From assembly GCF_003334305.1 (NCBI RefSeq), contig NZ_QOWS01000039.1: a stretch of DNA of 22,909 nt; one strand, given 5' to 3'. This document shows, one piece after another, positions 1,952-10,026 of the stretch. Both the position numbers and the translations under genes were made by a program. Numbering within the stretch: position 1 is the stretch's first letter; each line of letters begins with the position of its first letter. The notes under the pieces were generated by a model. That model saw only the letters and a program-made list of their open reading frames with translations. It searched no databases and had not been told where the DNA came from. The stretch is from Escherichia coli (lineage in GTDB: Bacteria; Pseudomonadota; Gammaproteobacteria; Enterobacterales; Enterobacteriaceae).

Positions 1952-3154
1952 ATGGCAGTATTGACGGATACGAAAGCAAGACATATCAAACCTGATGACA
2001 AACCATTGCCCCATGGGGGAATTACCGGACTGACCCTTCATCCTTCTTCAGTAAAGGGGCGGGGGAAATGGGTTTTTCGTTATGTAAGTCCGGTGACACA
2101 AAAAAGACGTAATGCTGGATTGGGAACTTACCCAGAGGTCAGTATTGCTGAAGCTGCACGTACTGCCCGGATAATGCGAGAGCAACTTGCTGCAGGTGAT
2201 GATCCTCTGGAGATTAAAAAGGCTGAATCTGAGAAAGTCGCTATCCCAACATTTGCCGATGCAGCCAGGCGTGTACATGCAGAACTGTCTCCTGGATGGG
2301 AAAATCCAAAGCATGTAAGGCAGTGGTTATCGACGCTTGAGAATTACGCGTTTCCTCAACTGGGAGCAAAAACGCTGGATTCGATTACGGCTGCGGACGT
2401 GGCAGAAACACTGCGTCCAGTCTGGTTAACCTTGTCAGAAACGGCAAGCCGGGTTAAACAGCGCATTCATGTTGTTATGCAGTGGGGATGGGCGCACGGT
2501 TTTTGTGTAGCAAATCCTGTTGATGTGGTTGACCATTTGCTTCCTCAGCAGACAAGAGGACGTGATGAACACCAACCCGCAATGCCCTGGAGGCAGTTAC
2601 CGCTTTTTGTGGCGACCAGTGTGTATACCGATGAACCTTATAATGTTACCCGCGCACTGTTATTAATGGTGATACTTACAGCAACTCGCTCGGGCGAAGC
2701 CAGGGGAATGCGCTGGGCTGAAATTGATTTTCATAAGCGGGTATGGACTATACCTGCAGAAAGAATGAAAGCTAGGCTACAGCATCGTGTTCCTTTATCC
2801 CGGCAGGCTATTTACATTCTGGAAAATATACGTGGCCTGCATGATGAACTGGTGTTCCCTTCACCCAGAAAGCAGCAGATCCTTTCCGATATGGTGTTGA
2901 CAAGTTTTCTGCGTAAAAAGAAAGCCGTCAGTGACATTCCGGGGCGAGTTGCCACGGCACATGGTTTTCGCTCAACATTCAGGGACTGGTGTAGCGAACA
3001 GGGGTATTCGCGGGATCTGGCGGAAAGGGCGCTCGCTCATACGCTGAAAAATAAGGTTGAGGCGGCATATCATCGTACTGATCTACTGGAGCAGCGTGTA
3101 CCGATGATGCAGGCATGGGCGGATTATGTGATGTCTCAAATTGTGAATAAATAA
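1952..3154 (+). CDS. int: P4-family tyrosine integrase (site-specific recombinase, 400 aa)
   Basis: N-terminal arm-type region (KWVFRYVSP...) and C-terminal catalytic core with R (TATRSGEARGMRWAEID), H-x-x-R (AHGFRSTFRDW) and the Tyr motif (AAYHRTDLLEQR). Overall layout matches P4/CP4-57-type integrases. Confidence 0.9.
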   Translation: MAVLTDTKARHIKPDDKPLPHGGITGLTLHPSSVKGRGKWVFRYVSPVTQKRRNAGLGTYPEVSIAEAARTARIMREQLAAGDDPLEIKKAESEKVAIPTFADAARRVHAELSPGWENPKHVRQWLSTLENYAFPQLGAKTLDSITAADVAETLRPVWLTLSETASRVKQRIHVVMQWGWAHGFCVANPVDVVDHLLPQQTRGRDEHQPAMPWRQLPLFVATSVYTDEPYNVTRALLLMVILTATRSGEARGMRWAEIDFHKRVWTIPAERMKARLQHRVPLSRQAIYILENIRGLHDELVFPSPRKQQILSDMVLTSFLRKKKAVSDIPGRVATAHGFRSTFRDWCSEQGYSRDLAERALAHTLKNKVEAAYHRTDLLEQRVPMMQAWADYVMSQIVNK

Positions 3155-3285
3155 TAGTGAAAATGTATATTGTACGATCATGATTTGATATGTGATCGTA
3201 GCAGTAGTAATTAAGAAACCGCTTTTATGTCAAATGTATTGAGCTGATAATTATCAGATCGTCAGGAAAGCGTATTTTGATTAAC

Positions 3286-3314
3286 AGGGGATTACTTAAC
3301 AATCCCCTTTTTAT
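3286..3314 (+). terminator. Putative bidirectional intrinsic terminator between the convergent int and orphan genes
   Basis: AGGGGATT-ACTTAAC-AATCCCCT hairpin (8-bp stem) followed by TTTTTAT; A-rich on the other side. Confidence 0.5.
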
Positions 3315-3340
3315 AAAAAATAATTTGCCTGTTTAACTCT

Positions 3341-6990: not shown

Positions 6991-7190
6991 TGAAATAATT
7001 TCTGGAGGTATTAAGAATGAGAAATATGAATGATATTTCGTGGTGAATAATACAGTCTTCACTGAATTAACCTTATCGGTTTATTAAACATCAGATCTAC
7101 AAATGCTCTGTATTTCTCAGAGCATCAGGTCTGAATAGCAGCTATTTTCGCTATTGTAGCGGGATTTGCTGCTATTTTACTAACCCATTA

Positions 7191-8642
7191 ATGAAAAGAG
7201 AGGCTTTTATGTGCTTACTTGCACCAGAAAATCCTTATCCGATATATGCACTACCACCGCTGGTGAGAAATGCAATAATTGAAACTCAAAAAAATACACA
7301 GGCACCTTTGGCTATGGTGGCAACATCCGCATTAACAGCGATCTCAATTGCCTGTCAGAATCAGATTGACGTGTGCAGACCTGGAAATTTACATGGGCCT
7401 GTTAATCTTTACTCTCTGATTCTGGCTGATTCCGGTGAAAGGAAAACGACCGTGGATAAAGTGTTTATGAAAGCATTTTATCTCAGGGATGAAGCCCTGG
7501 CGGAAGAATACGCGAAACTGGTTGAGAATTACAGTACAGAAAAGGAAATATGGGAGCAAAAACAAAAAGCGCTGGAATCAAAATTTCATAAAGAGATTCG
7601 TGCCGGTAAAGATTACAAGGCAACAGAATCAGAGCTTGAAACGCATCTGAATAAACCTCCTGTTCCGCCGCAGATACGTCGAACAATTTTTAATGAGACA
7701 ACGATAGAGGGAATGTTAAAATATTACTCCGATAGCAATCGCTCTTTTGCTCTTGTATCCAGTGAAGGGGGGGTAATTTTTGACAGCCGGGCCATGAGTA
7801 AACTGGGGATTATTAACACTTTGTGGGATGGAGGTTCTCTTTTCATCGACAGGAAATCATCTCCCGGAATTAATTTGAAGGAGCCAAGACTGACGATATC
7901 GGTGATGATTCAGCCTGATGTTTACCACAAAGGTTTTTGTACGCGAAAAAAAGAAATTGTGAAAACGTCAGGACATCATGCAAGGTTTTTGATGTGTCAA
8001 CCAACATCAACGCAGGGGACAAGGATAATAACCGGAGATAATTATTCATCACAGTATCAGGATTTGTTTGAAGAGAGGATCAATGAGCTTATTGATGAAA
8101 GTCTGGCGATGAGTGGTGAACGACGTTGCCTTCACTTTTCTCCTCAGGCTGCCAGAATCTGGACGGATTATTACAATGATGTGGAATCGAAGCTGGGGGG
8201 ATTGGGGCCTTTAAGACATTGCCGGGAATATGCTGCTAAAAATGCAGAGTATATGGCAAGACTGGCAGGACTTATTTACCATTCGAGCGGTGAAGAGGGG
8301 GAGATTTCCCCTTACACTGCAGAAATGGCGAGAGAATTAGCAATATGGTACGGTAATGAGTATGTGCGGTTGTCTAATCCGTTAACTTTTGACAACTCTG
8401 CCCTGACCGTACCTATGCGACTCATTCCAGAGGAGCTTGAACTTTTCAACTGGATAAAAAGCTATTGTATTGAGAAGGGGATCCTCTGTATGAAAAAAAA
8501 TGACATTTTACAGCGTGGTCCGAACCGTTTCCGGAAAAAGGATAAAATCAACTGGTTACTGGATTTACTGTATGAACAAAACAGAGTTGTACCGGTTATT
8601 GAGGGAAAAACGTTGTGTGTCGCACCTAACTTTGACCTCTGA
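7191..8642 (+). CDS. YfjI-like (DUF3987-type) protein, conserved backbone gene of CP4-57-like islands
   Basis: 483-aa ORF directly downstream of alpA. Family assignment is from gene order and recalled similarity, not from a search. The more likely start is the ATG at 7209, which has a GAGAGG ribosome-binding site about 7 nt upstream. Confidence 0.65.
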   Translation: MKREAFMCLLAPENPYPIYALPPLVRNAIIETQKNTQAPLAMVATSALTAISIACQNQIDVCRPGNLHGPVNLYSLILADSGERKTTVDKVFMKAFYLRDEALAEEYAKLVENYSTEKEIWEQKQKALESKFHKEIRAGKDYKATESELETHLNKPPVPPQIRRTIFNETTIEGMLKYYSDSNRSFALVSSEGGVIFDSRAMSKLGIINTLWDGGSLFIDRKSSPGINLKEPRLTISVMIQPDVYHKGFCTRKKEIVKTSGHHARFLMCQPTSTQGTRIITGDNYSSQYQDLFEERINELIDESLAMSGERRCLHFSPQAARIWTDYYNDVESKLGGLGPLRHCREYAAKNAEYMARLAGLIYHSSGEEGEISPYTAEMARELAIWYGNEYVRLSNPLTFDNSALTVPMRLIPEELELFNWIKSYCIEKGILCMKKNDILQRGPNRFRKKDKINWLLDLLYEQNRVVPVIEGKTLCVAPNFDL

Positions 8643-9462
8643 ACGACTTAATCGTTGAGTACATATAGTCTCCTCTGCTACTTGCGGAGGAGACTAATGT
8701 CTTTACCATGTCAGCGTTGTATTAGAAAACTCTGGTACAGGTCAGTCAGTAAATATAACTGGTGTAACCACTATTTACTATTGGATAGAGTGTTGCTCAG
8801 GATATTGTCGGCTTTAGTCTGAGGTGAGGTGGGGCCTTCATTGTTTTCGTGTTCAATAAATAATTTAGGTTAATTAGTATTATTAGTGGAAGTTATGTGA
8901 TCTGTTATGTTGTCTTGTACGCACTTAACACTGGTTACGTACCGGAACACCATTAGAGTATGTTATGGCTCTGTTACAGTTTATAGGTATGAAAAAATAT
9001 AATCTTTCCTGTATGAAATAATATTCTTATGGTGTGTGGGGTATGGTCTGTATACCATCATTTTTATGGTGAAGTTAAATATCTGTAGAGGCCTTAAGCT
9101 GGGTCGCTGTTTTTACTTAATGGTACAGAAGTATTAATAGCGGTGTTGCCTGTGGCTACCCGATACTGGCTTTTTTGAATGTCAGATTACTTCCTGTAAG
9201 TGATTGAATGGTACTTCCTTAAACTCAATTCTATGAGGTGTGTTTTTACCATTATAATTCGTACTGGTCCTCAGTTTAAGTGAGTCTTACTGTACTCTGA
9301 AATATTACCTCTTTGGAGTAATGAGGTAATACGAAACAGTTTTATCAGGTTGTCTGTGCTGCTGGTTACCTCGTTTATTAATGCCGCGGTACGGCGTTTC
9401 TGTACTCTCAGTATTTATGTAATTCCACCTTCCTGTAACTTTTATAAAGTAAGGACTATAAA
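8643..9462. other. 820-bp AT-rich non-coding spacer, candidate origin / regulatory region
   Basis: No ORF of 60 aa or more on either strand. Contains recurring short motifs (TTCCTGTAA three times; CTGTACTCT twice; GGTAC-containing words). Confidence 0.35.
8666..8696. repeat. Perfect 10-bp inverted repeat hairpin just after the yfjI-like stop
   Basis: TAGTCTCCTC (8666-8675) pairs with GAGGAGACTA (8687-8696) across an 11-nt loop. No T-tract follows, so it is not a canonical intrinsic terminator. Confidence 0.6.
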
Positions 9463-10026
9463 ATGTATAATGCTAATCCCAATTACGAAATGGACTTCAT
9501 GATTCTGAAAGATGTGAATGAACACATGGAAGGTCTGTTTCAACGTTTTTCTAAACTGTTACCTTTCAGAATTGATTTTGCCTACAGGAAAGACACGCCC
9601 AGTTTTGGTCATTCCTGTAGGCACAGTATGTGTATTGAAATGCACCGCTTACTTAGTGAAACCCAAACGATGCTGGCGGGATATTACTGGGTAATGGAAT
9701 ATACGTCAAACAAGGGACTTCATATTCATTTTATCGGCTACTTGGATGGGCAACGTCACAAGAAATTTTATCGGATATCCAGGCAACTGGGAGATATCTG
9801 GAGTCGGATCACGGAAGGGGAGGGTTATTTTCACCTGTGCAGTACTAAAGACAAATACCCGGTGCGTATCGATCACGTGATTCACTATAGTGATAAGTCT
9901 GCGGTAGACGGTTTACGTTACGCCCTTAGCTACCTGGCTAAACAGGATCAGAAAGAACACGGTATTATTCTGATGCGTAGCAGACTTCCCGAAAAAAGTA
10001 ACCGCGGCCGACCACGACACAACTGA
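9463..10026 (+). CDS. YfjJ-like HUH-endonuclease rolling-circle replication initiator (inovirus Gp2-type)
   Basis: HUH motif H-I-H at residues 87-89 (nt 9721-9729, GLHIHFIG) and Y-x3-Y-x2-K motif RYALSYLAK (Y153 at nt 9919-9921), as in phiX174 protein A-type Rep proteins. Same position as yfjJ in CP4-57. Confidence 0.75.
   Translation: MYNANPNYEMDFMILKDVNEHMEGLFQRFSKLLPFRIDFAYRKDTPSFGHSCRHSMCIEMHRLLSETQTMLAGYYWVMEYTSNKGLHIHFIGYLDGQRHKKFYRISRQLGDIWSRITEGEGYFHLCSTKDKYPVRIDHVIHYSDKSAVDGLRYALSYLAKQDQKEHGIILMRSRLPEKSNRGRPRHN

Follow-up and report, generated by a model that had tools for sequence, protein, structure and literature searches.

We analysed a 22,909-nucleotide stretch of an Escherichia coli genome (contig NZ_QOWS01000039.1 of assembly GCF_003334305.1, hereafter the window), in which an integrase gene, an opposite-strand gene for a protein of 605 amino acids (aa), an IS1 relic and alpA-, yfjI- and yfjJ-like genes follow one another in the order and orientation of the K-12 element CP4-57 (Table 1). 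A sequence-only reading of the window had placed these open reading frames (ORFs) correctly, and the CP4-57 layout that it drew on is also right: intA(+), yfjH(-), alpA(+), yfjI(+) and yfjJ(+), followed by yfjK/yfjL (abpB/abpA), yfjM and rnlAB. It went on to interpret the region as a CP4-57-like backbone with two exchangeable cargo slots, one between int and alpA and one after yfjJ. The results below support the slot after yfjJ, whereas the 605-aa gene appears to be a conserved component of the alpA module and not free cargo.

The window is 100% identical to positions 1892011-1914919 of E. coli strain A7 (NZ_CP028767.1). From position 1792 onward it is very probably the integrase-proximal end of a genomic island of ~71 kb that lies between ycdU and serX in A7 and reaches ~50 kb beyond the window's right end. 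Homology to K-12 covers positions 1-1791 and then resumes at serX, ~71 kb rightward in A7. Both A7 island junctions carry the 14-bp direct repeat TGGCGGTGAGGGGG, which is the last 14 nt of the tRNA-Ser(GGA) gene serX. The left copy occupies positions 1777-1790, 160 bp upstream of int, with island DNA beginning at 1792, and the second copy is at serX, as expected of an attachment site. ARAGORN finds no tRNA in the window, where the 3' end of serX is represented only by copies of 14-19 nt, because serX itself sits ~50 kb past the right window end. The same overall explanation, of which we are fairly confident, makes the A7 island a member of the serX family of the Shigella pathogenicity island bearing the resistance locus SRL (SRL-PAI), O-islands (OI) 43/48 (SpLE1) and CFT073 type, itself one branch of the wider CP4-57 class.

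Table 1. Features at the integrase-proximal end of the serX island, with positions in the window
Feature	Position	Strand	Description
Left island junction	1536-1791	-	Two RtT-like units with 181-bp spacing, from the ycdU-serX spacer; each ends in a copy of the serX 3' end
Paired GGCATAC motifs	1909-1932	+	ATGGCATACTGGATGGCATACC; just upstream of int; read from sequence
int	1952-3154	+	P4-family tyrosine integrase, 400 aa, SRL-PAI / OI-48 type
605-aa gene	3341-5158	-	Uncharacterised all-alpha "X family"; divergent neighbour of alpA; ~32% G+C (GC)
IS1 transposase pseudogene	5355-6047	+	RefSeq annotation; frameshifted, with an internal stop; lies between the 605-aa gene and alpA
alpA-like	6270-6566	+	AlpA-family helix-turn-helix (HTH) protein, 98 aa
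Duplicate of yfjI upstream region and 5' end	6668-6958	+	Repeat families D1 and D3; contains a 65-aa "DUF3987 fragment" ORF at 6793-6990
yfjI-like	7209-8642	+	DUF3987 P-loop protein, 477 aa; directly after alpA
Gp2/yfjJ-like	9463-10026	+	Inovirus-Gp2 (RefSeq product name) / YagK-YfjJ superfamily, 187 aa; HxH (HIH) and YLAKxxxK motifs
Relic of a PrimPol-superfamily 2 (SF2) helicase gene ("TOTE" archaeo-eukaryotic primase, AEP)	10169-10504	+	Frameshifted 5' part, residues ~24-118 of ~786; tblastn match at 10221-10504; RefSeq pseudogene
mkoA	10689-15647	+	1652 aa; PglW-like N-terminal region with kinase domains and a superfamily 1 (SF1) helicase
mkoB	15644-17080	+	478 aa; start overlaps the mkoA stop codon
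IS66 tnpC fragment	17146-17232	+	Marks the right border of the Mokosh insert
16S rRNA methyltransferase gene fragment	17239-17493		Follows the IS66 fragment

The profile search reveals that the 605-aa protein is not the orphan that it had been taken for. A word-indexed protein search returned only relatives at least 91% identical to it, while an exhaustive profile search found the family in 59 clusters among 1.84 billion protein representatives, with full-length identities of 20-30% across genera. In sister serX islands, proteins of 611 and 607 aa are 28-30% identical to it over their full length (E 1e-68 to 1e-72). Their genes are arranged as int(+), DUF3987(-), alpA(-) and 611/607-aa gene(+), which is the same three-gene unit inverted.

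The family gene lies divergent from alpA-DUF3987(-YfjJ) in all contexts examined but one, and in the exception (locus L042) no alpA ORF was called. In two loci (L011 and L014) the module is flipped, so that YfjJ adjoins int and the family gene is on the far side, yet it still stands beside alpA. The family co-varies with alpA and not with yfjI. The window AlpA is 41-77% identical to its counterparts where the neighbour of alpA belongs to the 605-aa family, 52-55% where the neighbour is YfjH, and 26-33% where it belongs to a 545-aa or a 262-351-aa family. The window YfjI presents the opposite pattern: it is 22-33% identical to its counterparts in islands that carry the 605-aa family, 41-43% in the remaining islands and 99% in the thrW island of E. 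coli M70. Ratios of nonsynonymous to synonymous substitution rates are 0.19 (window versus L058) and 0.18 (L006 versus L007), so the 605-aa gene is a working gene under purifying selection.

The protein itself has no match in Pfam, NCBIfam, PADLOC or PHROG, and its homologues are likewise negative in family libraries, save one long member with an HTH. In PADLOC, its PDC and HEC candidates included, neither the 605-aa protein nor the 611-aa homologue had a match at E <= 0.01, and the family was not found in 50,697 phage records. The AlphaFold (AF2) model is all-alpha, with a mean predicted local distance difference test score (pLDDT) of 84.9 and a predicted template modelling score (pTM) of 0.86; structure comparison of this model returned no characterised structural relative. 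Three long variants of 865-933 aa (proteins P0047, P0056 and P0060; L014 8001-10598 and L060 2938-5739) have at the N-terminus a domain akin to IS481 transposases, with HTH and RNase H-like parts, that scores 44-79 bits, under the family cutoff of 224. These variants look like a domesticated transposase fusion, and their transposase-derived HTH/RNase H-like domain suggests a DNA-associated function.

The whole block is widespread. Positions 1792-10100 (8.3 kb) are present at a coverage of at least 80% in 1022 of 5426 complete E. coli genomes, and the 605-aa gene and the IS1 pseudogene occur in every region-spanning match among the matches listed. At least 80% of the whole window is found in 239 genomes, and the Mokosh segment in 312 of the 5426. 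The relatives also reveal where the block comes apart. FDAARGOS_403 matches the window solely at 1401-3143 and 8958-10498, and the M70 thrW island solely from 6671 onward; a diverged duplicate of the yfjI 5' region marks a mosaic breakpoint at ~6671. Sister serX islands exchange the cassette as a whole, from the int 3' end (~3144) to ~500 bp upstream of Gp2 (~8957), and the cassette swapped in is distantly homologous and inverted. The backbone thus reads as modular and mosaic, since int, the block of the 605-aa gene with divergent alpA and yfjI, and the block of the yfjI 5' relic with yfjI, Gp2 and PrimPol have different closest relatives.

The IS1 copy in this interval is an old relic and not cargo. 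The whole 1111-bp spacer between the 605-aa gene and alpA is kept at 89.6% in a diverged island copy, and IS1 is absent from sister islands, where the family gene and alpA lie ~100 bp apart.

We tabulated the contents of both proposed slots across related islands, using 41 YfjI-encoding loci from species-representative genomes, found with two YfjI peptide patterns, plus ~10 others. This is a sample and not a census; the scan of the 41 loci started from a two-sequence YfjI alignment and is biased towards K-12/A7-like YfjI, and ORFs were labelled with hidden Markov models built for the analysis. The other occupants of the int-alpA interval are YfjH (6 loci), the 262-351-aa family, often preceded by a Fic/PDC-S04 protein (~11 loci), the 545-aa family (2 loci) and Lamassu LmuA/B. 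In Kosakonia pseudosacchari (L030, 4519-8212), Lamassu LmuA and LmuB lie between int and alpA and an unassigned 430-aa gene is divergent from alpA. We also considered that all neighbours of alpA might form one divergent family and dropped this idea, as hhalign detected no homology of the 605-aa family to YfjH or to the 545-aa protein of M70. The tabulation bears out the sequence-only reading for the interval after yfjJ, whose contents vary, and only in part for the int-alpA interval, where occupants differ by lineage but travel with their own alpA type. At a coarse scale the int-alpA interval can still be called a slot, each occupant being stable within its lineage; the picture is one of modules being shuffled in a regulatory and replication block, and not of a site at which free cargo docks.

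The region after yfjJ, or after the PrimPol gene where there is one, has the features of a true cargo site, and the comparisons support it well as an anti-phage defence hot spot across Enterobacterales. In all nine species-representative loci sampled for this purpose, PADLOC defence-family matches follow yfjJ, and they are unrelated systems: a full-length type III methyltransferase with weaker type III restriction endonuclease and SIR2-like matches (L017), Druantia DruE (L020), type I restriction-modification (R-M) with PDC-S11 (L021), a ZorA-like protein (L023), type I R-M (L026), IetS (L027), Shango SngA/SngC (L028), a JukA-like protein with type I R-M (L034), and PDC-M16 with HEC-06/SspE-like (L054).

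In the window this site holds an operon that we assign from its profile matches to Mokosh type I (10689-17080). MkoA scores 2206 bits in PADLOC over model positions 5-1603 of 1607 and also matches NCBIfam helicase, PglW and MAD6 kinase models; MkoB scores 503 bits (E 1.9e-151). Both proteins match their PADLOC models end to end and the genes overlap; nothing structural sets this copy apart from known Mokosh type I. It is specific only in its location inside a serX island, where the 6.6-kb operon sits between the PrimPol stump and the IS66 fragment. ABU 83972 has the same IS66 and methyltransferase fragments straight after Gp2, without the TOTE gene and without Mokosh. An intact PrimPol-SF2 gene (786 aa in O157:H7) follows Gp2 in O157:H7, FDAARGOS_403 and M70. 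Literature searches on Mokosh together with serX, or on the "TOTE conflict system", returned nothing useful.

The backbone similarity to CP4-57 on which the sequence-only reading rested is well beyond chance for three proteins and holds for YfjJ only remotely, at profile level. The integrase is 34% identical to K-12 IntA (BLASTP, E 2e-54) with the catalytic-region motifs aligned, matches an NCBIfam integrase domain (3.5e-55) and a PHROG integrase family, and shares 97% amino-acid identity with the integrases of sister serX islands. The AlpA-like protein is 52% identical to K-12 AlpA (E 2e-22) and matches Pfam Phage_AlpA (PF05930, 6.5e-19) and PHROG excisionase/regulator families; its gene runs in the same direction as the yfjI-like and yfjJ-like genes. 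It is a putative recombination directionality factor and activator, roles known for AlpA of CP4-57 and likewise for Rox of SRL-PAI. The YfjI-like protein is 41% identical to K-12 YfjI over 465 residues (E 4e-127), with matches to Pfam DUF3987 (3.5e-84) and to a PHROG "DNA helicase" family, and is the putative 5'-3' replicative helicase of the element. A DUF3987 protein has been shown to have 5'-3' helicase activity with PrimPol as its partner (PMC11724360). For the Gp2-like protein, BLASTP aligns YfjJ over an 18-residue motif alone (E 3e-4), and the Pfam scores are an i-E of 0.0012 for REP_ORF2-G2P and of 0.37, not significant, for YagK_YfjJ_C. Using hhalign, a profile of 14 YfjJ homologues aligns with it over 146 columns (87% probability, E 3.8e-6), the RVDL, HxH and YLxK motifs included. 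We therefore regard it as a probable remote member of the YfjJ superfamily, at the position where one is expected.

Several smaller features accompany these genes. The yfjI 5' duplicate (6668-6958) is a direct repeat of ~290 bp of 7134-7425, diverged to 74-78% identity, and its 65-aa fragment ORF is 57% identical to the YfjI N-terminus. It opens with an iteron-like stretch, GCAGCTATTGTCGCTATTGTAGCGGTAATTGCTGCTAT, and the same duplicate is present in the M70 thrW island. Between yfjI and Gp2 lies a non-coding gap of 820 bp (8643-9462) with a strong terminator-like hairpin at 8666-8696 and no Rfam match; conservation with sister islands within this gap restarts only from ~8958-9057, and the gap could hold a Gp2 promoter or an origin. 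In the TOTE protein of related islands (L006 19326-21686, L008 13665-16031, L009 17342-19702), which RefSeq labels a conflict-system protein, a PrimPol (AEP) is joined to an XPB/RadD-like SF2 helicase. Its place behind the helicase and Gp2 genes is fixed, which suggests that it is the island's replicase. The best sigma-70-like match scanned (10/12 positions; TTGCCC, 18-nt spacer, TATAAT) lies at 10535-10564 between the PrimPol stump and mkoA and is a plausible Mokosh promoter.

At the left junction, Rfam matches RtT at 1597-1733 (repeat family D2). Between ycdU and serX, RtT-like units of 181 bp follow one another in tandem, each closed by the last 19 nt of serX; K-12 has ~5 of them (L005, 2440-3084) and A7 ~1.4, and such an array would therefore put several pseudo-attachment copies of the integrase core site on offer. 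A permissive Rfam scan of 1400-10700 found nothing in the backbone besides the RtT-like units, and a promoter and terminator scan gave signals not above shuffled expectation. A GGCATAC pair similar to that upstream of int occurs ~60 bp inside the right island end, near 1964730 of the A7 record, and the pairs near both island ends are possible arm-type sites of the integrase. To the right of Mokosh, GC climbs from ~45% to ~54% around 17.0-17.5 kb of the window, and positions 17560-22221 hold an "enterotoxin"/alpha-galactosidase gene, malY-like and malX genes and a large number of pseudogenised sugar genes. Further right, the A7 island (locus L003) has decarboxylase/antiporter genes, a fec operon with a frameshifted fecI, and Ag43. 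Its distal tail, outside the window, is of CP4 type, with a GTPase, Ag43, DUF932, antirestriction, RadC, YeeU/CbtA and DUF4942 genes.

These elements can be assembled into a working model. The P4-family tyrosine integrase would recombine at the last 14 bp of the tRNA-Ser gene and leave the repeat at both ends, as shown in close relatives, and the AlpA-family protein would promote integrase expression and excision. The DUF3987 helicase, the Gp2/YfjJ-like Rep-like protein with its HxH and Tyr motifs, and the PrimPol-SF2 helicase would form the replication module. A7 has both 14-bp repeats and int as an intact ORF, and its PrimPol gene is a frameshifted stump; autonomous replication has therefore probably been lost, while excision is still plausible. 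The 605-aa protein, in this model, would act at the divergent promoter region and control induction of the alpA operon.

Among possible functions of the 605-aa protein we tentatively rank first that of a regulatory or sensing partner at the promoter region shared with alpA. We favour this role because of the linkage to alpA, the DNA-binding fusions of the long variants and the precedent of PIME1 elements, in which a luxR regulator divergent from alpA is required for excision (bioRxiv 10.64898/2026.01.12.698999). A broader and more doubtful version, which we put forward as a speculation, would make the 605-aa family the missing control element of CP4-57/SRL-PAI-class islands, a sensor or regulator that decides on excision and replication, for instance on detecting a helper phage or plasmid. 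The neighbours of alpA in other lineages (YfjH and the 545-aa and 262-351-aa families) would then be alternative sensors with other specificities. Stl of the Staphylococcus aureus pathogenicity islands (SaPIs) and the LuxR regulator of PIME1 would be analogues of such a control role. To our knowledge, no helper element is known for the serX islands.

Several observations weigh against the working model and the regulatory role within it. All E. coli copies of this lineage have the IS1 relic between the 605-aa gene and alpA, yet the O157 islands excise, so that excision there can do without a regulatory role at a shared promoter. The protein itself has neither a recognisable DNA-binding domain of its own nor a structural relative, and its low GC, its rapid divergence and the presence of Lamassu or Fic genes in this region elsewhere would suit a defence gene just as well. 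The statements on excision and on the functions of AlpA and the helicase are extrapolated from relatives, the relationship of Gp2 to YfjJ lies below the Pfam threshold, and the slot tabulation is based on 41 pattern-found loci and ~10 others.

That the 605-aa gene with IS1 and the content after yfjJ are both interchangeable cargo on a fixed backbone, as proposed by the sequence-only reading, is in our judgement unlikely. The unrelated genes found upstream of alpA according to lineage (YfjH, Fic/PDC-S04 with the 262-351-aa family, Lamassu LmuA/B, and the 545-aa and 605-aa families), the negative hhalign comparisons and the AT-richness of the 605-aa gene relative to its neighbours speak for it. 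On the other hand, the divergent place beside alpA is kept across 20-30% identity, across genera and in inverted modules far from int, and the AlpA subtype varies together with the gene beside it. Over ~1022 E. coli genomes (among the matches listed) the 605-aa gene and the IS1 relic stay constant while the content after yfjJ is variable, and sister islands swap the whole cassette of 605-aa-family gene, alpA and yfjI instead of a single gene. Together with the signature of purifying selection and the age of the IS1 pseudogene, these findings argue against the cargo claim for this interval.

Nearly as likely as the regulatory role, and still doubtful, is an uncatalogued defence function, in which the 605-aa protein would be an anti-phage or anti-mobile-element effector in an integrase-proximal hot spot, like the int-adjacent defence genes of P4-like satellites. 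The integrase-proximal intervals of related islands do hold Lamassu and Fic/PDC-S04 genes, the 605-aa protein diverges fast (20-30% identity) where AlpA stays at 41-77%, and the family has low GC, no housekeeping homologue and a distribution confined to island contexts. However, PADLOC gives no match even among its candidate families, the purely helical model has no enzymatic or nucleotide-binding motif, linkage is strictly to alpA and not to int or to the defence-rich region, and the long variants are fused to a transposase-derived DNA-binding domain. We find it very improbable that the region is instead a decayed prophage or a phage satellite (P4-like, or like the phage-inducible chromosomal islands, PICIs). 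By tradition CP4-57 counts as a cryptic prophage, the integrase belongs to the P4 family, AlpA is in the literature also a hallmark of Gram-negative PICIs, and the PrimPol/helicase genes resemble satellite replication modules. Against this, PHROG scans of the backbone proteins yield integrase, excisionase/regulator and helicase families only, the RefSeq annotation of the 71-kb island contains no capsid, terminase, Sid/Psu/Delta-like, cpm, terS or other virion or helper-exploitation genes, and the 605-aa protein is unmatched in the phage records searched. With its 71 kb and its metabolic, fec and Ag43 cargo, the island is also larger than phage packaging sizes. The reading that we prefer is accordingly that of an SRL-PAI-type integrative island whose 605-aa gene belongs with alpA.

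For annotation, this region should be described as the conserved int-proximal module of a serX (SRL-PAI / OI-48-type) island with a Mokosh type I insert, and not as a CP4-57 copy with two cargo slots. The island family, the attachment site, the integrase and Mokosh are already known and the window is a new combination of them; the island is otherwise ordinary, and the 605-aa family is the only new lead. This family and the unrelated alpA-adjacent genes are tied to the excision and replication module of islands found in about one fifth of complete E. coli genomes, O157:H7 included. If alpA-adjacent genes do control induction, this would explain the timing of virulence and resistance island movement. 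The interval after yfjJ or the PrimPol gene is a productive site to search for new defence systems, and several neighbouring ORFs there are without an assigned family.

Among known systems, PIME1 elements share with the A7 island an alpA gene with a divergent neighbour, in PIME1 a luxR regulator that would be a functional analogue of the role proposed for the 605-aa gene. They differ in having repA, traJ and trbJ/L, none of which is seen in the A7 island, and the 605-aa protein neither resembles LuxR nor has an HTH of its own. Pseudomonas islands inserted at tmRNA genes (PMC12595487) resemble it in their tyrosine integrase (IntY) at a tRNA/tmRNA 3' end, AlpA, Gp2-like and RadC proteins, and large defence-rich variable regions. 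With CP4-57 the likeness extends over the gene order and orientation from int through the divergent gene, alpA and yfjI to yfjJ, the defence genes straight after yfjJ (AbpAB and RnlAB in K-12) and a distal module of the same type (yfjP-like GTPase, yfjQ/DUF932, antirestriction, RadC and type IV toxin-antitoxin), in which several stretches reach 66-73% DNA identity. CP4-57 is however attached at ssrA, where the A7 island is attached at serX; its proteins are 34-52% identical, with YfjJ only remotely related, hhalign finds its YfjH not homologous to the 605-aa protein, and there is no PrimPol gene after its yfjJ.

CP4-57 is not the closest known relative but a more distant cousin, the closer relatives being the serX islands of the SRL-PAI / OI-43/48 family. 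These share the ycdU-serX insertion site and an identical direct repeat: the same 14-bp repeats, which are the last 14 bp of serX/serW, flank OI-43 and OI-48 of O157:H7 and the SRL PAI of Shigella flexneri, all inserted at serX/serW, whose integrases are 99% nucleotide-identical to each other, and OI-43/48 excise at ~1e-3 to 1e-4 per cell, as shown experimentally (PMC3064760). The link to the SRL PAI runs via this published integrase identity to OI-43/48 and not via the SRL PAI sequence itself; further right, the A7 island shares with the SRL PAI the fec operon, aspartate racemase, a dcuA-like transporter and Ag43. Window positions 1717-8029, int included, are 99.86% identical to O157:H7 86-24 DNA, and over the 8.3-kb stretch from int to Gp2, with the 605-aa gene and the IS1 relic, identity to O157:H7 is 96-99.9%. 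The two islands part after Gp2, where in O157 the PrimPol-helicase gene is complete and IS elements and ter/iha/ure (SpLE1) cargo come next, whereas A7 has the PrimPol stump, the Mokosh type I operon and a block of malX and sugar-utilisation genes.

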